From positions 44,289-108,288 of the forward strand of contig LCGL01000004.1 of NCBI GenBank assembly GCA_000999715.1: a DNA stretch of 64,000 bases, given 5' to 3'. The notes beneath the pieces were generated by a model that searched no databases, was not told where the DNA came from, and was given only the letters and a program-made list of their open reading frames with translations. This DNA is from Candidatus Falkowbacteria bacterium GW2011_GWF2_43_32 (GTDB taxonomy: Bacteria > Patescibacteriota > Patescibacteriia > Patescibacteriales > UBA12465). Shown here piece after piece: positions 19,329 to 60,835 of the stretch. The position numbers and the translations under genes were made by a program. Positions within the stretch are counted from its first letter, which is position 1. Every line of letters starts with the position of its first letter.

Positions 19329-19355
19329 TTAGCACTCTTATAATATGAGTGCTAA
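19329..19355. promoter_or_regulatory. CIRCE operator (HrcA binding site) TTAGCACTC-N9-GAGTGCTAA
   Basis: Perfect match to the CIRCE consensus inverted repeat, 29 nt upstream of the groES start codon. Confidence 0.88.
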
Positions 19356-19674: not shown

Positions 19675-21360
<1,686 letters not shown>

Positions 21361-26193: not shown

Positions 26194-28227
26194 TTATCGT
26201 GAATATTTAAAAATATAAATCTCTCCGTCAATCGTCCGCCACTCATCGGCCGTCAGTTTGGCTTCGTTGATAATGCGGCCGCTTTGATGCCAATATTTAT
26301 TGACAATCAAATAGGCTTCGTCAACCCCGACAAAATCCATCGCCGCCAAGGCGAATTTTTTGTCGGGTTTTTCATAAACCATTTTCAAATAATATTCATA
26401 AAGAGTTCCGCCGGTGGGTACGGGATAAAAATATGTTAATTCGGCAGGGGTATGATAATAACGGTCAAAACCAAAAATGTTTAACGCCGCCGCGCTAACT
26501 TGTTGGTTGGCCAGAGCGATGTACGGGACGGAGGACATTTGTTCCACCAATTTGACGGCTTGCCGATCATTGATGCTCGTGCTATAGCCATGACTGTTGA
26601 AATATTTATCAAAACGGGGGTAAGACAAATAAAGGCCGGCGCTTAAAAGCCCTAAGCCGAAAATCAACCAGATGGCTTGTATGGCCATTTTTTCTTGGCG
26701 AATTTTTATGATAATCATTTGCAGAGCCAAAGCGATGAACGGCAGGAAAAAGATGACGATGATAATCAAAATGCGGTCGGCATAGCCGTTTTGTTCGTAA
26801 TGAATCAAATCGTTAAAACGAATTTGACTGCTTAAAAAATAAGCGATTAGCAAGGCGAAATTAATGAAAATTATTCCTTGGCCGAGGGCTTTGTCTGTCT
26901 TCAATAATTGCCCGTCGTGTGTTTGGCGATACGACCGGCGTTGATAAAAATACCATAGAGTGGCGATGATAATAATAACGATCAGGAGGAGATTATAATT
27001 GTCCTTGAGCAAGTAAATAAAATTTAAGATGAAATTTTCTTGTCCGGCCGTTCCCGGATGAGCAAAAATATTTTTCAGCGCTTCCCGAAAAACAGTCGCT
27101 CCGCCGTCGGCGGAGAGGTTGCCGCCGCTCAAAAGCAAAGCTATCGGCAAAGACAAGGCGGTAAACAAGAAAATGACGAGTTTGATGATTTTGTCGGCCA
27201 GCGGTCGAAGATGATGATGATGTTTTTCAAAAATCAGCCAAGCCGTCCAACCCAGGGCCGGCAAACCGGTCAGAGGATGGATGGCCGCGGTCGCGAGAGC
27301 CAGTAATGATATTTTGGCCGGCGAGGCGCCGCTAAAACCAGCCAAAACGGTGAGAATTAAAAATAGGTAACTTAGATTTTGTGGTGTGGTCGCCACGAAA
27401 GGAGCGAAAGTCAGGCACAAGAGGAATAAGACGGTCAGAAAAGGCACGGCCGACACTTTTTCCTTTATTTGTTCTGCGGCATTTTTTAGAAAACGATAGA
27501 GAGCTAAAGGTAAAAATAGAGCGGTCAGACCGGGAACCAAAATTTTATTGAGCCAATAGATAGAAAGTCCGGTAATTTTATGAAGTGTAATAATTAAGCC
27601 GTACTCTCCCAGATAATAGGGGGTTTTGGGAAGCACCACTCCTTGCTTCGCGATTAATTCCATGGTCGCTTGGTGAATGAAAGGATCATACCCGTAACCG
27701 ATTTTATAAACGATGACCGCCACGGCCAAGGAAATTAGATAATGGCCGGCAAGAAATAATATTTTGAAGCCGGGGCTGATTGTTGTTGCGATTTTTTTAT
27801 GTCCCAAGATTAGAATCAGCAATAGGGAGGCCAGGCCGTAAAACCAGAAAAAATCCGACGGGACGGTTTCCCAAGGAGAAATCAGGGCGCGACCGCTTTG
27901 TCCGGCCCAAAGCCGAATGATAAGCAGTGCATAAACGGCGACGTAAGCGGCGATGAAAAAAGAAGCTTTTTTATTTTTATGGATTGAATTTTCTTCGGCA
28001 GAACTTATCTCTGTCGTGGCTCTTTCTCGGTTGGTCGCCGTTTTGACGAAAAGACGTCTCAGACAGACGAAACCGATGATGACCAAGATCAAAGACAGCA
28101 TAATCCCCACTCGGTTTAGAGAGTATAAATAATAGACTATGGCGCCGCTTGTCGTCGTCAACGAGGCAAGCAAGAGTAGGTAATCGTTTAAATTGCCGGT
28201 AATTTTAGCCCAATTCATTGTTTTCAT
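26194..28227 (-). CDS. Large polytopic membrane protein with C-terminal extracytoplasmic domain (possible glycosyltransferase/DUF2298-like)
   Basis: More than 12 predicted TM helices. The track ORF extends to 28377. The start is placed at an internal Met (MNWAKITG) to avoid a 185-bp overlap with the divergent gene. Start uncertain. Confidence 0.5.
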   Translation of the reverse strand: MKTMNWAKITGNLNDYLLLLASLTTTSGAIVYYLYSLNRVGIMLSLILVIIGFVCLRRLFVKTATNRERATTEISSAEENSIHKNKKASFFIAAYVAVYALLIIRLWAGQSGRALISPWETVPSDFFWFYGLASLLLILILGHKKIATTISPGFKILFLAGHYLISLAVAVIVYKIGYGYDPFIHQATMELIAKQGVVLPKTPYYLGEYGLIITLHKITGLSIYWLNKILVPGLTALFLPLALYRFLKNAAEQIKEKVSAVPFLTVLFLLCLTFAPFVATTPQNLSYLFLILTVLAGFSGASPAKISLLALATAAIHPLTGLPALGWTAWLIFEKHHHHLRPLADKIIKLVIFLFTALSLPIALLLSGGNLSADGGATVFREALKNIFAHPGTAGQENFILNFIYLLKDNYNLLLIVIIIIATLWYFYQRRSYRQTHDGQLLKTDKALGQGIIFINFALLIAYFLSSQIRFNDLIHYEQNGYADRILIIIVIFFLPFIALALQMIIIKIRQEKMAIQAIWLIFGLGLLSAGLYLSYPRFDKYFNSHGYSTSINDRQAVKLVEQMSSVPYIALANQQVSAAALNIFGFDRYYHTPAELTYFYPVPTGGTLYEYYLKMVYEKPDKKFALAAMDFVGVDEAYLIVNKYWHQSGRIINEAKLTADEWRTIDGEIYIFKYSR

Positions 28228-28291
28228 AAGGGTGTCTTTTAATGATAACAAATTCTTGCTAAAATTGGCAATTTCCGATAACATTAAAATA

Positions 28292-30067
28292 ATGAAAACG
28301 TTTGTCTTAAAACACGCTAATCTTCTTATCGTCATTGTTTTGGCGCTCGTTTTTTTTATCGCGACCGCCAGTTTCAATTATCTTTCCCAGGATACAGACT
28401 ATGTGAAATGGTCGTCTCCGGACGAAACCGCCAATTATTTTTTCGCCAAAAAATTCAGCGAAGCCGATTCTTTTAATCAGCGCTTGGCTTTTTTTGATTC
28501 GGCTAATGTCATCGGCGATAATTTAATCATGCCGCGCAGTATGCGCAGCGATTTCGGACAGGTCAAGCCGGTCAGCTTCTTGGGCATTATTTTGCTTTAC
28601 GGCGGGCTGGCCTCCATATTCGGCGTGGCCGTGATTCCGTTTTTGACGCCATTTTTTGCCGCTCTCGGTCTGATTATTTTTTATTTCATCGTTCGTCGTT
28701 TGTTTAACGAGCGCGTCGGGTTGTGGTCGGCTTTTTTACTGGCTGTTTTTCCGGTTTATGTTTATTATACGGTTCGGTCCATGTTTCATAATGTTTTGTT
28801 TATCGTTTTGGCCTTGATCGGCGTTTATTTGTTTATTTTGGCTTTGGGACCGAAGGGCGGTCGATTAAAGAAACCGTTTTTATCCCTGTCTTTGAGTCGG
28901 CCGGGGACAGAATTTCTGGCCGCTCTCGGCGCCGGCGCGTTCTCCGGTTTGGCGGCCATTACGCGCACCTCGGAATTGCTGTGGTTGATGCCGGCTTTTG
29001 TTTGTTTATGGATTTTTTATGTTCGTCGCTTGGGATTGGCAAAATTGGCTTTCTTTTTTGTCGGTTTGTTGGCCGCTTTTTTGCCGGTCGCTTATTATAA
29101 TCAAATTCTTTACGGTTCTTTTTTCCATGGCGGTTATAATGCCATGAATAAATCCTTGGACGAAATCGTGCAGACGGGCGGAGCGCTTTTGCAGTTTACT
29201 TGGGCCGGCCAATTTGATTATTATCACGCCTATCTCGGGCGCATTTTTCACAATATCTTTTACTTCGGCTTTGACTATCCGCAATCTATTTTAATGTTCA
29301 AACGTTATGTCGTGGAAATGTTTCCGGTCGTCTTCTATGCCGGCATGTTCGGTTTATTGTTGCTTCTCGGGCAGAACGTCCGTCGGTTCCGGAAAAAATA
29401 TTTGGTTTATGTTTTGGTCGGCTTGATCGTTAGCGTCTTTTTGGTGTTTTATTACGGCAGTTGGCAATTCAACGACAATCCCGATTTGACGCGATTTACC
29501 ATCGGTAATTCTTATACGCGTTATTGGTTGCCCATTTATTTGGCTTTGATTCCTTTGGCGGCTCTGGCGTTGACGCGCGTGAGCCGAGCGATTTTTTCGA
29601 TCGGTCGCCAAACGGCGGCGCGTTTGCGAAATTTATTGGCCACCGGATTGCAAATTTTGGCCGTAGCGCTGGTTGCCGCCTTGTCTATTCTGTTTGTTTT
29701 ATACGGCTCGGAAGAAGGCTTGATGTATTTGTATTATAATAATCGGGCGGAAAGAAGCAACACGGAAAAAGTTTGGTCTTTGACCGAGCCGGAAGCGATT
29801 ATCATTACCCGTTATTATGACAAGTTCTTTTTTCCGGAGCGACGGGTAATTATGGGCACTTTGCCCAATGAAGAGATTTTGACGGCGGCCTCTCAGCTGG
29901 TGAAATATTATCCGCTTTATTATTATAATTTTTATTTGAACGAAGCCGACGTCGCATATTTGAACGAACGTAAATTCGCTTCTTACGGTTTAACGATGAA
30001 ATTGGTCAAAAAGACCAACGCGCAATTCGGTTTGTATAAAATTGAACAAACCGGCGACGAGCGCTAA
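28292..30067 (+). CDS. GT-C fold membrane glycosyltransferase (PMT/ArnT family 39-like)
   Basis: N-terminal multi-TM region with periplasmic loops and a C-terminal soluble domain. Composition typical of dolichyl/undecaprenyl-phosphate sugar transferases. Start at MKTFVLKH, internal to the track ORF. Confidence 0.55.
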   Translation: MKTFVLKHANLLIVIVLALVFFIATASFNYLSQDTDYVKWSSPDETANYFFAKKFSEADSFNQRLAFFDSANVIGDNLIMPRSMRSDFGQVKPVSFLGIILLYGGLASIFGVAVIPFLTPFFAALGLIIFYFIVRRLFNERVGLWSAFLLAVFPVYVYYTVRSMFHNVLFIVLALIGVYLFILALGPKGGRLKKPFLSLSLSRPGTEFLAALGAGAFSGLAAITRTSELLWLMPAFVCLWIFYVRRLGLAKLAFFFVGLLAAFLPVAYYNQILYGSFFHGGYNAMNKSLDEIVQTGGALLQFTWAGQFDYYHAYLGRIFHNIFYFGFDYPQSILMFKRYVVEMFPVVFYAGMFGLLLLLGQNVRRFRKKYLVYVLVGLIVSVFLVFYYGSWQFNDNPDLTRFTIGNSYTRYWLPIYLALIPLAALALTRVSRAIFSIGRQTAARLRNLLATGLQILAVALVAALSILFVLYGSEEGLMYLYYNNRAERSNTEKVWSLTEPEAIIITRYYDKFFFPERRVIMGTLPNEEILTAASQLVKYYPLYYYNFYLNEADVAYLNERKFASYGLTMKLVKKTNAQFGLYKIEQTGDER

Positions 30068-43101: not shown

Positions 43102-44364
43102 TTAATCAAGACGTTGGATGTCGGCGCCTAATTTTTTGAGCCGTTCGTCCAATTTTTCGTAACCGCGATCCAACTGGTAGATATTGTCGATCTCTGTCGT
43201 GCCGTCGGCAATCAGCGCGGCAATTACCAAAGCGATGCCTGCCCGAATATCCGGGCTGATCAGTTTTTTGCCGTGCAAGCCGGTCGGTCCGGAAATGACC
43301 ACGCGATGCGGATCGCACATAATGATATTGGCGCCCATTTGAGAGAGCATGTCTGTCCAAATCAGCCGGCGATCGTAAATGGTTTCTTGAATCAGCGACA
43401 AGCCGTGTGCTTGGGTCATCAGGACCGCATAAGGTGATTGCAAATCAGTCGGAAAACCGGGATATTCATGAGTTTTAATATTGTAAGAACGAATGTTTTT
43501 CGACGGTTTCATCAATAGCCAGTCGGCGCCTTCCTCGTATTTTACGCCGATTTTATCAAAGACGGTCAGCAAACTTAGAATATGATCGGGATTGCAAGCG
43601 GTTATTTTTATTTCCGAATTGGTGGCCGCGGCCAACAAAGCGAAAGAACCGGTTTCGATTCGGTCGGGGATGATGTCAAAAGTGCCGGCGCTTAATTCGG
43701 TGACGCCCTCTATTTTAATGATTGGTGTTCCGGCGCCGCTGATTTTGGCTCCTTGTTCGTTTAAGTAGTCAGCCAAGGCTTTTATTTCCGGTTCCATGGC
43801 GCAGTTTTTCAAAATTGTTTCGCCGGGAATCAAACAAGCGGTCATCATCAAACTTTCCGTGACCGTGACGCTCACCGTAGAAAAAAAATAAGTCGTTCCT
43901 TGCAGTTTTTTTCCTTTGACCCGATAGCATTTGCCGTCTTCTTCTTCCACCGTCGCGCCGAAAGCCTTGAAACCTTCCAGAAACAGATCAATCGGCCGAC
44001 TGCCGGCGCCGATAACACAGCCGCCCGGGTGAGGGAAGCTGACTTCGCCGAAGCGGGCCAACAGCGGCCCGACAAACATGACCGATGTGCGAAATTTATC
44101 GGCCAGTTTCGAAGAGAGTTCGGTTTTATTGATATTTTTGGTATCAATTTCCGCGCTGGAACCGCGGTGAGTGATTTTTGCCCCCAAGTCGGTCAATAAA
44201 TCAAAAGATTTGCCGATATCTTCGATACCGGGAAGATTATTGACAGTGATAGTCTGCTCGGAGAGAATCGCGGCGGGGATAATTTTTAAAGCCGCGTTTT
44301 TGGCGCCGTTGATTTTGATTTCGCCGCTTAATCGGCGGCCGCCGGTAATGATGAATTTTGGCAT
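43102..44364 (-). CDS. murA: UDP-N-acetylglucosamine 1-carboxyvinyltransferase
   Basis: FIITGGRRLSGEIKINGAKNAAL N-terminus. 420 aa EPSP-synthase fold. Confidence 0.9.
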   Translation of the reverse strand: MPKFIITGGRRLSGEIKINGAKNAALKIIPAAILSEQTITVNNLPGIEDIGKSFDLLTDLGAKITHRGSSAEIDTKNINKTELSSKLADKFRTSVMFVGPLLARFGEVSFPHPGGCVIGAGSRPIDLFLEGFKAFGATVEEEDGKCYRVKGKKLQGTTYFFSTVSVTVTESLMMTACLIPGETILKNCAMEPEIKALADYLNEQGAKISGAGTPIIKIEGVTELSAGTFDIIPDRIETGSFALLAAATNSEIKITACNPDHILSLLTVFDKIGVKYEEGADWLLMKPSKNIRSYNIKTHEYPGFPTDLQSPYAVLMTQAHGLSLIQETIYDRRLIWTDMLSQMGANIIMCDPHRVVISGPTGLHGKKLISPDIRAGIALVIAALIADGTTEIDNIYQLDRGYEKLDERLKKLGADIQRLD

Positions 44365-51600: not shown

Positions 51601-53082
51601 TTATTTAACCGCTTCGCCCATATCGTAGTTATAGAGAAATTGCGAAGAAACGGTAACCACGTTTTGAGGATTATAATTTAATTTACTGAACATCGCATCA
51701 TCCATCGGTCGTTTTTTCCCGCCGGAAATAAGATAGACCAAAGGGAAATTTTGAGTTTTGACCAAAGTGCCTTCATCCAACAAAAGCGGAGTGGTGGTGG
51801 CGTAAGCGGTCAGCTCTTTGGTGGTTTTTTTGATAATTTGATCGCCGGCAAATTTTATGTCCAAAAGAACTTTATCCACGGGAGCTTTAATGCCGTTTTC
51901 TACGTAATAAATATCGTTGGTGCGACTGTCTTGCAGAAGCGCGCCGGTGACGTAAGTGGAAGTGGCATTAATGGTGGCACCGACTTTATAGCCGGCCAAG
52001 TCATCAATTGTTGCGGTTTCCACTTCTTCGGGATTGAAACCGAATTTTTTGAAAACCGTGGCGCTGGCGAAGGGCCGTTTTTCTTGATCAACCAACAGAT
52101 AGATGGTTTTGTCGGGCACTTGCACCAAAGAATAATTGGCGAATTTGATTTCCGAACCGATCGGGTAGTTGTCCAGCTCGCCGGAATCCACCTCAACGAT
52201 TTGTCCCGGCTTAAAGCGGGAAATATAGGAAGACCAATTGGAGAAATGCCTTTTCTGTCCGTTTTCTATCAGCCAAACCCGCGGATCGCCCGACGCTTTA
52301 ATGATAGAACCGTTCGGATAAAGTCGGGAAACTTTCGGGAAGTAACGGTTCCAAAGTTTATAGGTATTGTAATTTCCGTTGAAAACATGAGGGGTGTAAT
52401 TATATAGAGCGGCCGTGGCTTGATTGGCCGGTGTCACGATCATAGATTCTTGAGAGATGGTGCCGTAAGGGTTGCTGAAAGTATAAGTTTGGCCGGCTTT
52501 GTAAGAATAATTTTGCGGCTCTTGCATGTAAGCCAGAAATTGAAGAGCGGCGCTGTTCACTTGTTTGCCGAAACCTTTGTAGTATGGATTGCAGACCCAA
52601 TTGTCCGGACAGCCATAACCGGTCGCCCAATCCAAACGATTTTGCGACGGGTTGGCGTCCTCGATCAAGCTGGCTTCTTTTTGCAAAAGGACCAAGAGAA
52701 ATTTAGGATTGATGGTGGTGATATGTCGGCATTTGGTGAATTTTTCCGTCTCGGTCGGCGTTTCGCTAAGTGTAATACCCTCGCAATCGTAATTATTGTA
52801 GGCGGCGTCATGAATTATTTGAGCGGCGGTTTTTAGGTCGCCGTGAGTGTTGGTGGTGGTATAATTAGCCAAATAACTCCCTTTATTTTGGAGAAAAGTT
52901 TGGATTTCCGGCAGAGTCATACTGCTGTAATTCAGAATATCCCAATCTTCCAAAATACGATTAGGATTGAAGGCCGGATCAATGCCGGTTTGTGCTTGAG
53001 CGCCTTTAACTAGCGGAAAAAACATTAAAAACGCTATTATAAGCGAGATAGCTATATTTTTCATATTAAATTGGTTAGTCAT
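51601..53082 (-). CDS. Hypothetical secreted protein (493 aa)
   Basis: Signal peptide MKNIAISLIIAFLMFFPLVKGAQA. No catalytic motif recognised. Confidence 0.5.
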   Translation of the reverse strand: MTNQFNMKNIAISLIIAFLMFFPLVKGAQAQTGIDPAFNPNRILEDWDILNYSSMTLPEIQTFLQNKGSYLANYTTTNTHGDLKTAAQIIHDAAYNNYDCEGITLSETPTETEKFTKCRHITTINPKFLLVLLQKEASLIEDANPSQNRLDWATGYGCPDNWVCNPYYKGFGKQVNSAALQFLAYMQEPQNYSYKAGQTYTFSNPYGTISQESMIVTPANQATAALYNYTPHVFNGNYNTYKLWNRYFPKVSRLYPNGSIIKASGDPRVWLIENGQKRHFSNWSSYISRFKPGQIVEVDSGELDNYPIGSEIKFANYSLVQVPDKTIYLLVDQEKRPFASATVFKKFGFNPEEVETATIDDLAGYKVGATINATSTYVTGALLQDSRTNDIYYVENGIKAPVDKVLLDIKFAGDQIIKKTTKELTAYATTTPLLLDEGTLVKTQNFPLVYLISGGKKRPMDDAMFSKLNYNPQNVVTVSSQFLYNYDMGEAVK

Positions 53083-53127: not shown

Positions 53128-55767
53128 TTATCTATTTACTTTCATCACCACCGCTTCTTTTTCGCCCAGATCAATTTTAACTTTATCGCCTTCTTTGATT
53201 TTGCCCTCAATGATTTCCAGCGCCAATTCGTCCAAAATCATGGTTTGAATGATACGCTTCAAAGGCCGGGCGCCATAAGTGATGTCGTAGCCTTTATCCG
53301 CCAGCAATTTTTTGATTTTCGGACTGATTTTGATGGCGATATTTTTATTGCCCAAACGTTTCTCCACTTTCAACAATTCCAAATCGACGATTTTTTCCAA
53401 GGCTCCCGGAGTCAGGCTTTGGAATAAGACAATTTCGTCAATCCGGTTCAAGAATTCCAACTTGAAATGATTTTTTAGAATTTTATCTATTTTTTCTTTC
53501 ATTTCTTCGGCGCGCATTTTAACCGCTTGGTTTTTGTCGCCGGCGTCGGCGAAACCGATGGAGTATTGTTTGATGATTTCGTTGCCCAGATTGGAAGTCA
53601 TGATGACAATCGTATTTTTGAAATTGACCGTGCGACCCTTGGAATCGGTTAAACGGCCGTCATCCAAAATTTGAAGCAACATGTTGAACATATCCGGATG
53701 AGCTTTTTCCACTTCGTCAAACAAGACGACCGAATAAGGATGCCGGCGAATCTGTTCGGTCAGTTGTCCGCCTTCGTCATGGCCGACATATCCCGGAGGC
53801 GAGCCGATCAGTTTGGCGACCGAGTGTTTTTCCATAAATTCGCTCATGTCCAGACGGATGAGCGCTTTTTCGTCATCAAACATGAAACGGGCCAAGGCTT
53901 TGGCCAGCTCGGTTTTGCCGACGCCGGTCGGACCGACGAACAGGAAAGAGCCGATCGGTTTTTTTTCTTCGTTAATGCCGGCGCGAGAACGGCGCAGGGC
54001 ATTGGCGACCGCTTTGATCGCTTCGTCCTGGCCGACGACTTCTTTATTCAATTCACTTTCGGCATCGCTCAGTCTTTTGATTTCATCCTGCAGCATTTTA
54101 TTGACGGGAATGCCGGTCCAACGGGCCACGACTCGGGCGATATCTTCTTCGTCCACTTCTTCTTTCAAAATTCGTTGACCTTTTTTCTGGATTTTCAACA
54201 AGGCGGTTTGCGCTTCTTGAATCTTTTTTTCCAATTCCGGAATCAGGCTGTAACGGATTTTGGCCACTTCCGTCAGATCGGCGCCTTGGCGTTGAGAAAT
54301 TTCCGCTTTGATTTTCAAGTCTTCTATTTCTTTTTTGGATACGCGGATTTGGGAAATGATGTTTTTTTCGTTATTCCAATGCAATTCCAATTGGTCGGCT
54401 TTTTCTCGCAATTTGGCCAATTCGGCATTCAGCGTTCTCAGTTTCGGAGATTTTTTGTCTGCGGTCATCAAACCGGCCCGGTTCAATTCCAATTGTTTTA
54501 TTTTGCGTTTTAATTGATCCAATTCATCCGGCATGGAATCGATTTCCATGCGCAGGGAAGAGGTCGCTTCGTCTATCAAATCAACGGCCTTGTCCGGCAG
54601 AAAACGATCGCTGATATAGCGGTTGGACAATTTGGCGGCGGCAATGAGGGCGTCGTCGGTAATGCGAACACCATGATGGACTTCATATTTTTCCTTGAGT
54701 CCGCGCAACATATCGACCGTATCGTCCAAGCTCGGTTCGTTGACGTAAATCGGCTGGAAACGGCGTTCCAGGGCGGCGTCTTTTTCAATGTATTTTTGAT
54801 ATTCTTTAGTGGTGGTGGCGCCGATGGTGCGCAATTCGCCGCGAGCCAGCGCGGGTTTCAGCATATTGGAAGCATCCATGGAGCCTTCGGAAGCGCCGGC
54901 GCCGATTAAGGTATGGAGTTCGTCAATGAACAGGATAATTCGGCCGTTTTGCGCTTTGACTTCTTTCAAAACGGCTTTCAGGCGGTCTTCAAATTCGCCG
55001 CGAAATTTGGCGCCGGCAACCAGCGCGCCCAAATCAAGCGTCACGATTTCTTTTCTTTTTAAATTTTCCGGCACGTCGCCGGCGATGATTCTTTGCGCCA
55101 GACCTTCCACGATAGCGGTTTTGCCGGTACCGGCTTCGCCGATCAGAACCGGATTGTTTTTGGTGCGGCGGAGCAAGACTTGCATGATGCGACGCACTTC
55201 CTGGTCGCGGCCGACGACCGGATCCAATTTTTCTTGTCGCGCCAACTCGGTCAGATTGGTCGTGTATTTTTCCAAGACACGAAATTTGTTTTCCGGGAAA
55301 GGATCGTTGATCGTTTGATTGCCGCGCAGTTCTTTCAAGATGTTTTTCACGGCTTGATATTCTACTTTAAAGTCCAGCAAAACGCTTTGCGCCGGCGAGG
55401 AAACGCCGATGAGCGCCAAAAGGATATGTTCGGTGGAGATATATTCGTCGTTCAAGCCGTCGGCTTCTTTTTGGGCGCGCTCCAGAATCAGCGCGGTTTC
55501 GGCCGTGCCGGAAACGGCTTGCACCGGACCGGTTTGAACATTGATTCGGACGCGCGGCAATTTTTGAATGGCTCTGACGGCATGATCTTCAATCCGATCC
55601 GGATCTATTTTCATTTTTTCCAAAACCGGCTTGATCAAGCTCTCATTTTGTTGGAGTAAGGCCAGCAGAATATGCACCGCTTCAATATTTGTTTGACCGT
55701 GAGCGGAGGCAATCATTTGCGCGTTGATAATCGCTTCTTGCGATTTGTCCGTAAATTTATTGAACAT
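53128..55767 (-). CDS. clpB: Chaperone disaggregase ClpB
   Basis: 879 aa. Clp_N repeats, D1 Walker [10 protein letters not shown] and Walker B ILFIDELH, long coiled-coil middle domain, D2 Walker [10 protein letters not shown] and Walker [11 protein letters not shown]. Confidence 0.9.
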
Positions 55768-55840: not shown

Positions 55841-55867
55841 TTAGCAGTCCCGTTAAGAGAGTGCTAA
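55841..55867. promoter_or_regulatory. CIRCE-like operator TTAGCAgTC-N9-GAGTGCTAA (one mismatch) in the clpB / membrane-Hsp100 divergent region
   Basis: Matches the HrcA operator consensus at 17/18 positions. About 75 bp upstream of clpB and about 130 bp upstream of the 55994 ORF. An 8-bp inverted repeat TTTGCCAA-N9-TTGGCAAA lies at 55805-55829. Confidence 0.6.
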
Positions 55868-55993: not shown

Positions 55994-56407
55994 ATGAATC
56001 GTCTTTCGGCTGTTGGTTTTTTTATTTTATGCTATAATAATCTTATGATTAATCATAATTTTTTCACTTACGCCGGTAAAATTATCGGTCAAATTTTAGG
56101 AGAAATTTTGTATTTCCCGGTTTGGTGGTATACGGTCGGTTTCGCGCGTACCGCTAAGGGCGGTTGGCGTTTTTGGCGCGGTCGGGAAAGCTCTCTCGGT
56201 TTCGGCGTTTGGGTGAAAAATATTTTTGTGCCGATGTACGGCCAGCGCGATTTAGCCAGCCGGTTAATCAGTTTTGTCATGCGTTTGGTGCAGATAATTT
56301 ATCGCGGCGCGATTTTGTTGTTTTGGTTGGTGTTGATTTTGTTGTTTCTGGTTCTTTGGTTGGCCGGACCGATATTGTTATTGTTGGCGCTGGCTTTTCA
56401 AATTTGA
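55994..56407 (+). CDS. Hypothetical membrane protein
   Basis: 137 aa with 3-4 hydrophobic helices. Immediately upstream of the membrane-anchored Hsp100 paralogue. Confidence 0.45.
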   Translation: MNRLSAVGFFILCYNNLMINHNFFTYAGKIIGQILGEILYFPVWWYTVGFARTAKGGWRFWRGRESSLGFGVWVKNIFVPMYGQRDLASRLISFVMRLVQIIYRGAILLFWLVLILLFLVLWLAGPILLLLALAFQI

Positions 56408-56456: not shown

Positions 56457-59156
56457 ATGTCCGAAATGTCTTCAGAAAAGTTGACTTTTACCGAAGAGCA
56501 GAATGTCGGCGGTCGCGGCGTTTGGTTTTTGGGACGATTTTTATTTTGGGGCCGGCCGTTCAAGAAGACTTTGATCGGCTTGGCCAGAGCCAGTCGGAAA
56601 ATTAATTTCTTTTTATCTTTTTTGCGTTGGTTGATTATTTTTGCCGGTTGGGCGGCTTTCGGTTATTGGTTGTTTTTACATCAGGCGTTGTGGATTGAAA
56701 ATCCCGTCAGGCTGTTGTTTTTTTGGCGCACGCCCGATATTTTAATTTTCATTTTTTTGTTTTCTCTCTGGTTTGATTTATTCTCCGTCTATGAATCCAG
56801 CCAAACCAAGGCGGCCGTCAAGAAAATCAAGCGTTCGGATTTTGATCGGGAAGGGGATAAAAAGAAAAAGTTGCGGCGAGGCGGCAAAAAATACGAAGTG
56901 GCGAACGCTTATGCGCCGGAAACGTGGCGAGCGGTTGAAGACGCATATTTGTTGGCGGCGCGTCTGCGTCAGACCGAGACCTCGGTTATTCACCTTTTCC
57001 GAGTGTTGTTGAAAGATAAAAAAATTCAAAATTTATTTATTCGTTTGGATGCGGATGTCAAAAAATTGGTGGAATTGGTGGATCGTCATTTATTGTCGCC
57101 CGAAAAAACGGAGTTTAAAGGCCGAAGCGCTTTATCGCCGGTTTTGCAAGAAGTTTTGGTTTTGGCTTTCGTCAACGCTTACGAACTGCGACAGGATAGC
57201 GTTGATGTTTTGAATGTGGTTTCTTTTTGCGCCGGCAAAGATCCGGTTCTTCGGGAAATTCTGTATGAATTGGAAATTGACGAAGATAAAATCAACAATA
57301 CCGTCGCTTGGTTTCGGGTCAATCGCCGCTTGGCGGAGAGTTATCGGTCTTACAGCCGTTCGGCTTTGTTAAAACCGGGCAACAATATGAATCGTTCTTA
57401 TACCGCCATCGCCACGCCGACTTTGGATCATTTTTCGCATGATTTGACCGTGCGGGCGAAATACGGAGATTTAAATATTTGCGTCGGCCGAAAAAGAGAA
57501 ATTTCTTCCATTTTTGAAGCTTTTTCCGGCGGCCATAACGGCGTTTTGTTGGTCGGTCCGGTCGGCGTCGGCAAGAGCGCCATTATCGACGGCTTGGCGC
57601 AATTGATGGTGGAAGAAAACGTGCCGGATTTTTTCAAAGACCGGCGCTTGGTGGAGTTGGACGTTTCGCGTTTGTTGGCCGGAGCCGCTCCGGCCGAAGC
57701 GCAGGAAAGATTATTGCTCAGTTTGAACGAAGTGAGCCGTTCGGGCAATATTATCTTATATATTGATAACATTGAAAATTTGATCGGCATCAGCGGCGGT
57801 GCCGAAGAAAGTTTGGATATCTCCGAAGTTTTGGCCGAAGCGATCGGGCGCAGAAATTTATATTGTCTGGCGGCGGCCACCACGGAAAATTATGCGCGGT
57901 ATATTGAAAACAAGGCGATCGGCAATGTCATGACGACGGTCGCGGTCAAAGAACCGGAAACCAACGAAGCGATTCAAATTTTGGAAAGCAAGGTGGGACT
58001 TTTAGAATCAAAATATGACATTTATATCGTCTACGGCGCTTTGGAAGCGGCCGTAACCATGTCCGATCGTTATTTGCATGATAAATTTTTGCCGTTCAAA
58101 GCTCTGGACTTATTGGAAAAAGCGGCCATCATTACCGGCAAGAACGCGCGGAATAATCCGGAAAAAAGTTTTTGCGGTCGGGAAGAGGTGGCCGCGGCCA
58201 TCAGTGAAATTACCGGTATTCCGGCCAGCAAAGCCAGCTTGTCGGAGGGTCAGAAACTTTTAAATTTGGAAGATGAAATTCATCAGCGCTTGGTCGATCA
58301 AGAAGAAGCGGTCCGAGCGGTGGCGGCCAGTTTGCGTCGCGCGCGCGCCGAAATGAAAGACAGCAAGCGGCCGATCGCCAGTTTCTTGTTTTTGGGACCG
58401 ACCGGCGTCGGTAAAACGGAATTGGCCAAATCAGTCAGCCAAGTTTATTTCGGCGATGAAGATTACTTGATTCGTTTGGATATGAGCGAATATCAAGACA
58501 CGGGCAGTGTGCGGAAAATGATCGGTGACGTGGACGGGACGCTCGGCTACTTGATCGAAGCGGTCCGCAAAAAACCTTTTTCCTTGATTTTGTTGGATGA
58601 AATCGAAAAAGCCAATCCCGATATTCTGAATTTGTTTTTACAATTATTGGATGACGGACGCTTGACCGACGGTCAGGGGCGAACGATCAGTTTTGCCGAA
58701 TCCATCATTATCGCCACTTCCAATATCGGCGCCGTTTATATTCAAGAGCAGATTGTCGTCAAAACGCCGCTTAATGTCATCAAACAGGGCTTGATCGATC
58801 AAGAGTTGAATAAATATTTGCGTCCGGAATTGATCAATCGGTTTGACGGAATTATTGTTTTCAAACCTTTGAGCGAAGAAGACGTTTTTGCCATCGCGAC
58901 TTTGATGCTGAAAAAAATCAAGAAGAATTTGGCGGCCAAGGGTATCGGCCTGAAGGCCGATAAGGACGGCGTGACCATTTTGGCGCACGAGGGCTATGAT
59001 CCGAAATTCGGCGCTCGTCCTTTGCGGCGCTTGTTGCAGGACAGAGTGGAAAATCCCATCGCCAATAAAATTTTGGCCGGAGAGCTGAAGCGTCGCGATA
59101 CGATTGTCATTAACAATCGGGCGGAAATAGAAGTGGACCAAGGAAAAGAATTGTAA
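56457..59156 (+). CDS. Membrane-anchored Hsp100/Clp-family AAA+ ATPase with degenerate first ATPase domain
   Basis: About 130 N-terminal residues with 3-4 TM helices. Clp_N-like repeats. D1 Walker A GPVGVGKSA, but Walker B is ILYIDNIEN (DN not DE) and the Arg-finger segment is IGNVMT (no Arg). D2 is canonical ([19 protein letters not shown]). No obvious middle coiled-coil or IGF loop. Confidence 0.8.
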   Translation: MSEMSSEKLTFTEEQNVGGRGVWFLGRFLFWGRPFKKTLIGLARASRKINFFLSFLRWLIIFAGWAAFGYWLFLHQALWIENPVRLLFFWRTPDILIFIFLFSLWFDLFSVYESSQTKAAVKKIKRSDFDREGDKKKKLRRGGKKYEVANAYAPETWRAVEDAYLLAARLRQTETSVIHLFRVLLKDKKIQNLFIRLDADVKKLVELVDRHLLSPEKTEFKGRSALSPVLQEVLVLAFVNAYELRQDSVDVLNVVSFCAGKDPVLREILYELEIDEDKINNTVAWFRVNRRLAESYRSYSRSALLKPGNNMNRSYTAIATPTLDHFSHDLTVRAKYGDLNICVGRKREISSIFEAFSGGHNGVLLVGPVGVGKSAIIDGLAQLMVEENVPDFFKDRRLVELDVSRLLAGAAPAEAQERLLLSLNEVSRSGNIILYIDNIENLIGISGGAEESLDISEVLAEAIGRRNLYCLAAATTENYARYIENKAIGNVMTTVAVKEPETNEAIQILESKVGLLESKYDIYIVYGALEAAVTMSDRYLHDKFLPFKALDLLEKAAIITGKNARNNPEKSFCGREEVAAAISEITGIPASKASLSEGQKLLNLEDEIHQRLVDQEEAVRAVAASLRRARAEMKDSKRPIASFLFLGPTGVGKTELAKSVSQVYFGDEDYLIRLDMSEYQDTGSVRKMIGDVDGTLGYLIEAVRKKPFSLILLDEIEKANPDILNLFLQLLDDGRLTDGQGRTISFAESIIIATSNIGAVYIQEQIVVKTPLNVIKQGLIDQELNKYLRPELINRFDGIIVFKPLSEEDVFAIATLMLKKIKKNLAAKGIGLKADKDGVTILAHEGYDPKFGARPLRRLLQDRVENPIANKILAGELKRRDTIVINNRAEIEVDQGKEL

Positions 59157-59263: not shown

Positions 59264-60835
59264 ATGTTTTACTTCGGAGTTTTTATAGCGGTTTTGGCTT
59301 TAACGGCGATTCTCACTTTATTGGTCAGAAGAATCGCTCTTTATTTTGAAATTCTGGACAAACCGGATCAAGGGATTTTGTCCGCCAGAAAAATTCATCG
59401 ACGGGCAACGCCGCTTTTGGGCGGGGTGGCGATTTTTATCGGTTATTTTGCCGGTCTTTTTTTCTTTTGGGAACGGTTTTTGTCCGGTGATCTTCATTGG
59501 CGACATTTAATCGGTTTTGCCGTCGGCGCTTTATTGATCATTATCGGCGGCATTTTGGACGACAAATATAATTTGCGGCCGCGCCGACAAATTATTTTTC
59601 CGCTCTTGGCTATCGTCGCGCTGATTTTGGGCGGCGTGGAAATCGCCAAAATCACCAATCCTTTCGGCGGATTTTTGGATTTGCAATCTTTGTTCTTTAT
59701 CTCGCCGCTTTTGATCGCCCTTTGGCTTTTGGGCATGATGTATACGACCAAATTATTGGATGGCGTGGACGGATTGGTTTCGGGCGTGAGCGTAATCGGC
59801 GGATTCATTATTTTTTTATTTACTTTAACGACACGGTATTATCAGCCCGACATCGCTTTGGCGGCAATTCTTTTTGCCGGCGCTTGCACCGGCTTTTTGA
59901 TTTTTAACTGGCATCCGGCGAAAATTTTTTTGGGCGAAGGCGGCTCTTTGTTGTTGGGTTATATCTTGGGGGTTTTAGCCGTTATTTCCGGCGGCAAAAT
60001 CGCCATTGCGCTTTTAATCATGGGTATTCCGGTTTTGGATGTCGCCTGGACGATTATTCGCCGTTTGTTGAAGAAAAAAAATCCTTTTCGTTTCGCCGAT
60101 CGGGAACATCTGCATCATCGTTTGTTGGCCTTGGGATTGAGTCAAAGAAAAACGGTGTTGGTTTTTTATTTTTTATCCCTTACTTTCGGATTGAGCGGTT
60201 TGTTTTTGCAAAGCCGCGGCAAATTTTGGGCCTTGATTATTTTAACGGTCATTATGCTCGCGCTGGTCATCAGTTTTTGGTATCTTGATCGGCGCCGGGA
60301 AAAAAATAAACCGAAGTTATTGTTGCACATTTGTTGCGCTCCTTGCGGTACCTATATCAGTCGCGATCGTCTGGCGGCAAAATATGATTTGACTTGGTAT
60401 TTTTATAATTCCAATTTGAATACTCGGGCGGAATATGACAAGCGCCTTTATTATGTGGAGATGATGGCGAAGAAATTTAATTTTTCTTTGCTGGTCGAAC
60501 CTTATGAGCATGCGGCCTGGCAAGAAAAGACTGCCGGCCATGCCGCCGATCCGGAACGCGGCGCGCGGTGTTTGATTTGTTATCGCGATCGTTTGGAAAA
60601 AACGGCTCGCTTGGCAAAAGAGCGGGGCTTTGATCTTTTCGGCACGACTTTGTTGGTCAGTCCTTATAAAGACAGCGCCGCCATTCGGTCCATCAGCCGT
60701 AATTTAGCCAAGGAATTCGGTATTGAATTTTTAGATGAAGATTTTCAGGCCGCTGACGGTTATCGTCGCTCGCAGGAAGTGGCTAAAGAGCTGGGTCTTT
60801 ATCGTCAAAAATATTGCGGTTGCGAATATTCTTAA
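59264..60835 (+). CDS. Fusion protein: MraY/WecA-family polyprenyl-phosphate glycosyl-1-phosphate transferase (N) + QueH/DUF208 epoxyqueuosine reductase-like domain (C)
   Basis: N-terminal 340 aa: 10 TM helices, HRRATPLLGGVAI and ILDDKYN motifs of GT family 4. C-terminal 180 aa: LLLHICCAPCGTY ... CLICYRDR ... YCGCEY, the HxCCAPC and terminal Cys-cluster signature of DUF208/QueH. Single uninterrupted 523-codon frame. Confidence 0.7.
   Translation: MFYFGVFIAVLALTAILTLLVRRIALYFEILDKPDQGILSARKIHRRATPLLGGVAIFIGYFAGLFFFWERFLSGDLHWRHLIGFAVGALLIIIGGILDDKYNLRPRRQIIFPLLAIVALILGGVEIAKITNPFGGFLDLQSLFFISPLLIALWLLGMMYTTKLLDGVDGLVSGVSVIGGFIIFLFTLTTRYYQPDIALAAILFAGACTGFLIFNWHPAKIFLGEGGSLLLGYILGVLAVISGGKIAIALLIMGIPVLDVAWTIIRRLLKKKNPFRFADREHLHHRLLALGLSQRKTVLVFYFLSLTFGLSGLFLQSRGKFWALIILTVIMLALVISFWYLDRRREKNKPKLLLHICCAPCGTYISRDRLAAKYDLTWYFYNSNLNTRAEYDKRLYYVEMMAKKFNFSLLVEPYEHAAWQEKTAGHAADPERGARCLICYRDRLEKTARLAKERGFDLFGTTLLVSPYKDSAAIRSISRNLAKEFGIEFLDEDFQAADGYRRSQEVAKELGLYRQKYCGCEYS

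Follow-up and report, generated by a model that had tools for sequence, protein, structure and literature searches.

The 64,000-nt window analysed here, the whole stretch from position 44,289 to 108,288 of contig LCGL01000004.1 of Candidatus Falkowbacteria bacterium GW2011_GWF2_43_32, carries on its plus strand an open reading frame (ORF, 56457..59156) for a protein of 899 aa that is almost certainly, as judged from its sequence and predicted structure, a membrane-anchored Hsp100 of ClpA architecture. Its gene is preceded by that of a small membrane protein, subsequently named the partner, and followed by a gene for a polyprenyl-phosphate glycosyltransferase; a canonical ClpB-type Hsp100 is encoded divergently further upstream (Table 1). 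Partner and Hsp100 form a tightly, apparently translationally, coupled two-gene module. A sequence-only reading of the window had described the 899-aa protein as a membrane-tethered Hsp100 with a single active engine that could serve, together with the small upstream membrane protein, as an extractor or quality-control unfoldase of membrane proteins.

Table 1. Features of the Hsp100 locus, with positions in the window, strand and the evidence on which each assignment rests
Feature	Position	Strand	Basis
Canonical ClpB-type Hsp100, 879 aa, full M-domain, GYVG pore loop, conserved IGF tripeptide	53128..55767	-	NCBIfam, alignments
CIRCE (HrcA operator), 1 mismatch	55841..55867	.	directly downstream of minus-strand promoter TTTACA-17-TATCAT (55900->55872)
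Partner gene, predicted 120-aa membrane helical-hairpin protein	56045..56407	+	gene callers, homologues, AF2, synteny
Transmembrane-anchored Hsp100 paralogue, 899 aa (alternative start 56466)	56457..59156	+	Pfam, NCBIfam, alignments, AF2, Foldseek
Small β-sheet, putative Cys-less remnant of a DnaJ-CR-like zinc ribbon (residues 11–30)	56487..56546	+	AF2 strands 11–14, 19–24, 27–30
Predicted transmembrane helix 1 (residues 49–74)	56601..56678	+	Kyte–Doolittle >1.6; AF2 helix 37–74
Predicted transmembrane helix 2 (residues 92–112)	56730..56792	+	Kyte–Doolittle up to 1.9; AF2 helix 95–121
Lys/Arg-rich linker, predicted cytoplasmic (residues 113–147, +14/−6)	56793..56897	+	charge counts; pLDDT dip at 131–140
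Clp N-domain-like region and long connecting helix (residues 148–304)	56898..57368	+	Clp_N weak here, significant in homologues; AF2 all-helical
Degenerate D1 AAA+ module (residues 340–560)	57474..58136	+	alignments to ClpB/ClpC
D1 Walker A GPVGVGKS (intact; canonical GEAGTGKT)	57555-57578	+	alignment
D1 pore loop AGAAPAEAQ, no aromatic (vs AGAKFRGEF; canonical ClpC/ClpB AGTKYRGEFE)	57678-57704	+	alignment
D1 Walker B ILYIDN (canonical ILFIDE; IILYIDNIE vs IILFIDELH)	57753-57770	+	alignment
Former D1 Arg-finger site KAIGNVMT (AIGNVMT vs canonical ALERRFQ)	57912-57935	+	alignment
D2 AAA+ module, predicted to be catalytically intact, and D2-small domain (residues 610–890)	58284..59126	+	Pfam, alignments, conservation
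D2 Walker A GPTGVGKT	58395-58418	+	alignment
D2 pore-1 loop shortened to GDVDGTLGY	58524-58550	+	alignment
D2 Walker B LILLDE	58584-58601	+	alignment
D2 Arg finger NRFD	58836-58847	+	alignment
D2 sensor 2 GARPLRR	59010-59030	+	alignment
WecA/TagO-like polyprenyl-phosphate GlcNAc-1-P transferase (GT4, PF00953) fused to QueH (PF02677)	59264..60835	+	Pfam; WecA and MraY scores

The GenBank protein of this gene (P0001, labelled 'ATPase AAA-2 domain protein') is 100% identical and 896 aa long, its start being set at the second ATG at 56466. Pfam searches returned PF07724 (AAA_2, E = 2.4e-49), PF10431 (ClpB_D2-small, 4.3e-23), AAA_lid_9 (4e-12) and a first P-loop module, together with a weak match to Clp_N (E = 0.002) that becomes significant in homologues. 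Tandem AAA+ modules, a D2 of the AAA_2 type followed by ClpB_D2-small, and a Clp_N domain place the protein in the class-I Hsp100/Clp superfamily; the complete order from the N-terminus is a β-remnant of a zinc ribbon, a transmembrane hairpin, a Lys/Arg linker, the Clp N-domain, D1 and D2. The NCBIfam scores lie far under the curated cutoffs: 562 against 1232 for ClpB (TIGR03346, matched in two stretches), 460 against 993 for ClpA (TIGR02639) and 420 against 885 for ClpV (TIGR03345). The ClpA model alone aligns from end to end, over residues 158–885, and the ClpA match of the protein runs as one stretch (305–879). In a BLASTP comparison with the neighbouring ClpB (41% identity in D2, 27% in D1), residues 557–570 of the query stand opposite ClpB residues 402–535, which leaves a gap of ∼120 residues. 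Both the gap and the unbroken ClpA match bear out the earlier remark that the middle coiled-coil (M-domain) is absent. The best sequence match in the PDB is ClpC, with 440 bits.

Kyte–Doolittle hydropathy in 19-residue windows exceeds 1.6 in two segments only, at ∼49–74 and 86–112, and nowhere past residue 130. The AlphaFold2 (AF2) model, computed from a 149-sequence alignment, has a mean predicted local distance difference test score (pLDDT) of 92.7 and a predicted TM-score (pTM) of 0.87; it places a three-stranded sheet at residues 11–30, long helices at 37–74 and 95–121 with two short helices between them, then a Lys/Arg linker of low confidence, an all-helical N-domain, D1 and D2. Block-mean pLDDT is 89–98 for residues 21–130. 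The charges are +9/−4 before the first transmembrane helix and +14/−6 after the second. These positive flanks, and the need of the AAA+ modules for cytoplasmic ATP, indicate that the N-terminus forms an N-in/C-in hairpin of two transmembrane helices. The membrane anchor of the sequence-only reading is therefore retained; its count of three to four helices is not, as hydropathy and AF2 both give two and residues 11–30 are predicted to be β-strands. A mis-called start as the source of the hydrophobic region was ruled out: homologues extend over the N-terminal region and share its hydrophobic segments, the model is confident there, and no internal Met occurs before residue ∼311. The D1–D2 core superposes on protomers of ClpC and ClpB hexamers with TM-scores of 0.82–0.84 and root-mean-square deviations of 4.2–4.6 Å (Foldseek; E = 6e-58 for ClpC), so both AAA+ folds are predicted to be intact.

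The two AAA+ modules were compared at residue level with the neighbouring ClpB and with ClpC of B. subtilis and S. aureus, which gave mutually consistent alignments. D1 keeps its Walker A motif, carries DN in place of DE in Walker B and has lost the Arg finger, just as first described from the sequence, and these deviations are conserved in close homologues. D1 thus lacks both the Walker B Glu and the trans Arg fingers of an active module. The loss of the aromatic residue from the D1 pore loop, which had gone unmentioned before, adds to this. A shifted alignment that would restore DE or the Arg finger was ruled out, since BLASTP against ClpB, phmmer against ClpC and MAFFT alignments of 120 and 150 sequences concur. 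As Walker A is intact, nucleotide binding by D1 is possible; by its motifs D1 appears to be a degenerate, scaffold-like ring that at most binds nucleotide.

D2, by the same alignments, has everything expected of an active module: Walker A, Walker B, the sensor-1 Asn (in TSN), an Arg finger and the GAR of sensor 2. It is accordingly predicted to be catalytically intact. The statement that this module is fully canonical holds for the catalytic motifs and fails for two loops. A 5-residue deletion has turned GYVGYDEGG into GTLGY (alignment row GDVDGTLGY-----LIE) and removed the pore-1 Tyr, and the ClpP-docking loop (KYVGFNVQDE in ClpC) is deleted, with no IGL/IGF-like tripeptide in the loop region. 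We considered Y698 (GY-L) as a displaced pore tyrosine and rejected it: Tyr is found there in 45 of 134 representatives only, and the column corresponds to the Q/Y that opens the next helix in ClpB and ClpC.

The protein belongs to a large family. In a database of 5.8 billion proteins we found at least 120 close homologues with 65–76% identity and 99–100% coverage; they come from Patescibacteria/Falkowbacteria, are mostly named ClpC and keep the deviant motifs of the window protein. At least 150 clusters at 50% identity extend the family down to ∼35% identity, and the best 150 align in one stretch, i.e. lack the M-domain. Relatives were found in GTDB species genomes (259, all of them Patescibacteria metagenome-assembled genomes, MAGs) and in metagenome contigs (283, from a scan seeded with the N-terminal parts of distant Hsp100s). 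Full-text literature searches turned up no account of an Hsp100 anchored in a bacterial membrane, nor of this Clp family of the candidate phyla radiation (CPR). By sequence, these proteins make up a large subfamily within the class-I Hsp100/Clp ATPases, specific to Patescibacteria and not described so far. One representative (P0174, 1191 aa) carries a third AAA_2 plus D2-small module at its C-terminus, which makes it a three-module Hsp100. Many third-party annotation MAG records that contain this Patescibacteria-specific locus (L009, L010, L014 and others) are titled 'uncultured Gammaproteobacteria bacterium', apparently a placeholder or mis-assigned taxonomy.

Motifs were counted in 134 representatives of at least 820 aa, and column conservation was calculated from 149 sequences. 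An N-terminal Kyte–Doolittle segment above 1.6 is present in 147/149 full-length family genes. In D1 a Walker B DE remains in 7 of the 134 representatives, a P-loop K[ST] in 60, RR Arg fingers in 12 and a pore-loop aromatic again in 12. In D2 the Walker B residues D714 and E715 are 99–100% conserved, and K653, T654, N756, R795 and R854 are invariant or conserved to at least 90%; D2 is more than 50% identical family-wide, and the median identity of the representatives to one another is ∼42%. The D2 pore loop behaves quite differently from these residues: G-[YFW]-x-G is found in 7 representatives, 110 have no aromatic residue in it at all, and columns 691–696 are rich in indels with conservation values of 0.08–0.28 (one Gly at 0.59) between G690 (0.99) and G697 (0.96). 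In contrast, GSPPGY[IV]G is present in 57/57 orthologues of the neighbouring canonical ClpB over the same evolutionary span. A conserved D2 beside variable pore-1 loops suggests strong selection on ATP hydrolysis by D2 and a release of the pore-1 loops of both rings from constraint.

The family also varies in front of the membrane anchor. Within the N-terminal ∼40 residues, ahead of the transmembrane hairpin, 71/134 representatives (e.g. those of loci L004 and L005) carry a CxxCxG…CxxCxG zinc ribbon, for which the best Pfam match was PF00684 (DnaJ cysteine-rich, DnaJ-CR) in five out of five N-termini, with E-values of 1e-4 to 2e-3 that stay below the cutoff. The Falkowbacteria clade of the window has lost the cysteines of the ribbon and apparently kept a remnant of its fold.

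The sequence-only reading had the small upstream gene begin at 55994. A 137-aa ORF from that position is possible; gene callers and homologues favour 56045, which is most likely the true start and gives a protein of 120 aa. Neither Pfam nor NCBIfam searches matched the partner, and Foldseek found nothing significant for it in the PDB. A profile search returned about 794 homologues, all annotated 'hypothetical protein' and devoid of domains; those with an organism name come from Patescibacteria lineages. AF2 predicts a two-helix hairpin (helices 6–51 and 70–119, pLDDT 91.6) with an invariant loop N-x-F-x-P-M-Y-G-Q-x-D at its tip. Both ends of the chain are hydrophobic (Kyte–Doolittle ∼3.1 at the C-terminus) and the middle is rich in Arg and Lys (+8/−1), which suggests that the base lies in the membrane and that a stalk of ∼30–40 Å extends into the cytoplasm.

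In every diverse locus inspected a homologous ORF of 110–132 aa lies directly upstream of the Hsp100 gene (8 loci aligned). Homologues of the window partner were identified in loci L002, L004, L005 and L086–L089 with phmmer E-values from 3e-47 to 1.6e-5. In L002, whose Hsp100 is 65% identical to that of the window, 2 nt separate the two genes; in L088 the partner ORF overlaps the Hsp100 start, and in L004 it was left uncalled in the annotation. We then surveyed all genes within 5 kb of a family gene at 168 loci, using our own ORF calls on MAG contigs, and clustered them without prior assumptions. Lineages were defined at 50% global identity by average linkage, and the lineage counts depend on this threshold. 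The most frequent neighbour cluster is the partner, always upstream and on the same strand with a median gap of 4 nt, in 128 of 140 eligible loci and 23 of 25 lineages (15/16 lineages at a threshold of 45%). Most of the misses are artefacts of longest-ORF start calls. Reverse look-ups from two partner homologues again led to an Hsp100 directly downstream. The idea that the Hsp100 acts with the small membrane protein encoded upstream is thus strongly supported.

The second commonest cluster, which the sequence-only reading had not linked to the Hsp100, is a glycosyltransferase of the GT4 type of ∼350 aa. Its gene is located downstream of the Hsp100 gene and in the same orientation in 86 of 109 eligible loci and in 11 of 20 lineages (8/13 at the 45% threshold). 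In a set of closer genomes it was present in 65/67 loci, at a distance of 200 nt or less in 40 of them. Stop and start codons of the Hsp100 and GT4 genes overlap in several loci, a Buchananbacteria genome has a gap of 13 nt, and in one representative (P0130) the two are fused in frame (Hsp100::GT4). The GT4 of the window scores 118 bits with WecA and 71 bits with MraY. It has 10–11 transmembrane helices and is fused to QueH, an unusual arrangement; GT4 and QueH are separate adjacent genes in related genomes, and versions of ∼770 aa occur in L031, L057, L058, L065, L074 and L081.

Among distant relatives the arrangement (MraZ-MraW-c21)-(TGT)-partner-Hsp100-GT4-DUF192-L21 recurs, with MraZ-MraW upstream in 11 distant loci. 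In one distant sub-clade (L124, L127, L133–L135, L151–L155) the module follows immediately after mraZ-mraW (rsmH) and a small 127-aa ORF, the place where the ftsL/ftsI and mur genes usually begin in the division and cell wall (dcw) gene cluster. A gene for TGT (tRNA-guanine transglycosylase) lies just upstream of the module in 7/24 lineages (L086, L090, L095, L097, L106, L107 and others). In Falkowbacteria, QueH is found on the downstream side, either fused or as the adjacent gene, so genes for queuosine salvage border the module at one end or the other, depending on the lineage.

The divergent neighbour is a canonical ClpB, as had been stated, with an NCBIfam ClpB score of 1196, just under the cutoff of 1232. 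A divergent clpB upstream of the family gene occurs in 59/114 loci; these represent 2 of 22 lineages, all Falkowbacteria-type genomes. The adjacency is therefore incidental, and the functional link with ClpB that the sequence-only reading had implied is not supported. Heat-shock co-regulation of the two Hsp100 genes via CIRCE (controlling inverted repeat of chaperone expression) was likewise ruled out by the position of the operator: it follows the sigma-70-like minus-strand promoter of clpB and precedes any promoter of the plus strand, so it would serve clpB and not the partner–Hsp100 operon. The clpB gene may hence be assigned to the HrcA regulon of this CPR bacterium. A second, perfect CIRCE was found at 19329-19355 upstream of the GroEL gene (19693..21360), with ∼0.01 such matches expected by chance. 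At residues ∼735–739 the neighbouring ClpB reads Y-S-I-G-F, with IGF in 57/57 orthologues within an otherwise variable loop, at the site of the ClpP-docking VGF/IGL loop of ClpC and ClpA. This motif raises the possibility of a naturally occurring counterpart to the engineered 'BAP' variant, a ClpB/ClpC hybrid with the ability to dock to ClpP. Three large ORFs of the window gave no Pfam match: 51601..53082 (minus strand, 493 aa), 26194..28377 (minus strand, 727 aa) and 28193..30067 (plus strand, 624 aa). The first of these, of 493 aa, begins with a signal-peptide-like stretch, and it accompanies clpB as a conserved neighbour at 46 Falkowbacteria loci.

How does this protein compare with systems that have been characterized? 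E. coli ClpA has the same order of N-domain, D1, D2 and D2-small without a middle domain. However, ClpA is a soluble protein in which both rings are active and carry pore-1 tyrosines and an IGL loop serves for ClpP docking, whereas the protein described here has a predicted transmembrane hairpin and an apparently dead D1 and lacks the pore aromatics as well as a loop for ClpP. ClpC of B. subtilis and S. aureus gives the best match in sequence and structure, and its name is the one used by the databases; it differs in its short M-domain, its VGF loop, its GYVG and KYR pore loops, its canonical D1 and the lack of a transmembrane segment. ClpB and Hsp104 share the two-ring Hsp100 core, but the long M-domain of ClpB for coupling to DnaK and the essential pore tyrosines are both absent here. 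Without an M-domain, DnaK coupling of the ClpB type is not expected, and from its sequence the protein is predicted to be neither a partner of ClpP nor a DnaK-coupled disaggregase. ClpV/TssH is set apart by its score and by gene context, as no type VI secretion genes were found in the 168 neighbourhoods.

Membrane-bound AAA+ proteins offer other parallels. In Msp1/ATAD1, FtsH and Bcs1, which have membrane proteins as their targets, an N-terminal transmembrane anchor puts the entry face of the ring on the membrane. Msp1 and FtsH extract proteins by threading, and Bcs1 moves a folded protein without threading. All three are single-module proteins of the classical AAA clade; aromatic pore loops are retained in Msp1 and in FtsH, the latter of which also has a protease. 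The protein encoded in the window, in contrast, is a two-module member of the Clp/Hsp100 clade without pore-loop aromatics. Torsins are related to Clp/Hsp100, associate with the membrane via an N-terminal hydrophobic segment, lack aromatic pore loops and need a transmembrane cofactor dedicated to them, LAP1 or LULL1 (PMC5425593). The tether, the missing aromatic pore loops and the small membrane cofactor make them a functional analogue, with no claim of specific homology. However, Torsins, which reside in the eukaryotic ER and nuclear envelope, are single-module, lumenal proteins whose Arg finger is supplied by an AAA-like cofactor; here we find two modules, an Arg finger (NRFD) of D2's own, an ATPase predicted to be cytoplasmic and a partner that is a predicted 120-aa helical hairpin.

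Taken together, we favour, at a probability of roughly 45%, a partner-dependent ATPase, powered by D2, that remodels or regulates membrane proteins of envelope biogenesis without processive threading. The architectural part of this composite reading is nearly certain; our confidence in its functional part is moderate. Tethered by its transmembrane hairpins, the Hsp100 would assemble as a ring under the membrane and present its N-domain/D1 face to the bilayer. The Arg/Lys-rich stalk of the partner, with its invariant PMYGQ tip, would reach this face, and the partner would be indispensable as an adaptor, an anchor or a regulated element. Conformational changes driven by ATP hydrolysis in D2 alone would remodel, assemble or switch membrane-embedded proteins of envelope biogenesis, and the leading candidate client would be the presumably co-transcribed WecA-like polyprenyl-phosphate transferase. 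Such an ATPase would follow the logic of Torsins or Bcs1 rather than that of ClpB and ClpC. Envelope-glycan biogenesis is the most likely field of action because of the gene neighbourhood, namely the WecA-like initiating transferase and the head of the dcw cluster.

The single-engine, membrane-tethered Hsp100 of the sequence-only reading is consistent with our results, a degenerate D1 being paired with a catalytically intact D2 as far as motifs tell; the extractor or unfoldase is not supported as stated, since the pore-1 aromatics with which characterized Clp/Hsp100 proteins thread their substrates are absent in both rings. In its classical form this proposal would have the partner deliver damaged or orphan membrane proteins, in the manner of FtsH or Msp1, to a ring in which D2 is the sole threading motor. 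We consider it unlikely, although the anchor would set the N-domain/D1 entry face beside the membrane, D2 retains its catalytic residues, the DnaJ-CR-like ribbon of about half of the representatives is a typical substrate-binding module of chaperones, and the few D2 loops that still read G-Y/F-x-G would suit a gripping element. The aromatic is missing from 122 of 134 pore-1 loops in D1 as well as from most of those in D2, and in the clade of the window the D2 loop is five residues shorter. Hypervariability in sequence and length is just the reverse of what one expects from an element that grips substrates, and there is neither a protease domain nor a ClpP-docking loop through which extracted proteins could be disposed of. 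Somewhat less probable again is a nucleotide-dependent scaffold or switch, a ring or non-ring oligomer that does hardly any mechanical work, organizes a membrane complex (for instance of the partner and glycan-initiating enzymes) and uses slow D2 turnover as a timer of assembly and disassembly. Pore loops lost in both rings, a degenerate D1 and an obligate small membrane cofactor do resemble the Torsin–LAP1/LULL1 system, and the conserved D2 motifs are compatible with it. Unlike Torsins, however, D2 has an Arg finger of its own and also retains sensor 2, and this points to a homo-oligomeric ATPase of normal activity; the scaffold or switch differs from the partner-dependent remodelling ATPase mainly in degree.

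Three further explanations receive very little credence from us. A contribution of the adjacent ClpB, through mixed rings or through recruitment of ClpB to the membrane, would make sense of the divergent clpB in about half of the loci. It is highly improbable given that this adjacency is confined to so few lineages, that CIRCE and its promoter serve clpB only, that the D1 modules share just 27% identity and that the family is present in genomes with clpB elsewhere. Hardly credible is a plain ClpC/ClpA orthologue, i.e. a membrane-anchored unfoldase subunit of the ClpP protease. This is what the NCBI and JGI names ('ATP-dependent Clp protease ATP-binding subunit ClpC') imply, and the best PDB matches to ClpC and the ClpA-like lack of an M-domain agree with it. 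The scores far under the curated cutoffs, the deleted VGF/IGL docking loop, the missing pore-loop tyrosines and ClpC M-domain and the dead D1 speak against it, and the conserved IGF sits in the neighbouring ClpB instead. We attach just as little probability to a paralogue in decay or a pseudo-enzyme devoid of ATPase function, or to a part of a mobile or defence island, which the degeneration of D1 and of both pore loops and partial PADLOC matches to DolB and PDC-M37B might suggest. D2 catalytic residues conserved at 99–100% despite a median identity of ∼42% are not those of a decaying gene, and the family persists at full length in hundreds of genomes with stable housekeeping synteny (L21, RecR, DnaB, MraZ/MraW). 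As the PADLOC matches cover the generic AAA_2 module only and the partner has none, a defence system was rejected.

Several observations weigh against the remodelling ATPase that we favour. The transmembrane topology is based on hydropathy, charge bias and AF2 rather than on a dedicated predictor. Threading is unlikely for a protein that, by its sequence, lacks pore-1 aromatics, yet other residues or a loop of the partner could provide a grip. The GT4 gene is missing from the neighbourhood in ∼9 of 20 lineages, and part of the conserved gene order could reflect the inheritance of an operon whose genes are not functionally coupled; the recurrent TGT, QueH, DUF192, aminoacyl-tRNA synthetase and type IV secretion system pilin neighbours do not fit a story confined to the envelope. 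The P0130 fusion is a singleton: since a search of the junction region gave no second fusion, it lends weak support only. A recurrent fusion as Rosetta-stone evidence was rejected, the best 120 matches to the C-terminal part of P0130 being stand-alone GT4s. Finally, the functional assignment draws throughout on sequence, synteny and models of monomers.

A bolder version of the arrangement, which we regard as quite improbable, would have six Hsp100 transmembrane hairpins and the membrane bases of the partners form a ring in the bilayer. The stalk of the partner would fill the channel or the N-domain collar as a permanent 'built-in substrate' that D2 pushes, pulls or rotates, so as to pass on force or a signal across or within the membrane. 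If true, this device could gate or activate the WecA-like glycosyltransferase or move folded cargo in the manner of Bcs1, a mechanism that is not known for any Hsp100.

Threading of substrates by means of pore-loop tyrosines is the textbook mechanism of Hsp100/Clp ATPases. Here a large, ancient and strongly conserved bacterial lineage combines a D2 with pristine motifs and decayed pore loops with a predicted membrane anchor and a dedicated partner. Either Hsp100 cores can work by a non-threading mechanism, which would be a bacterial counterpart of the unresolved Torsin problem, or they thread with a wholly different grip. In hundreds of database entries the name 'ClpC' or 'ATP-dependent Clp protease ATP-binding subunit' is probably wrong. 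Envelope biogenesis and proteostasis of Patescibacteria/CPR, in which the family is widespread, are almost unknown, and the frequent coupling of this module to a WecA-like starter of lipid-linked glycans offers a concrete entry point.

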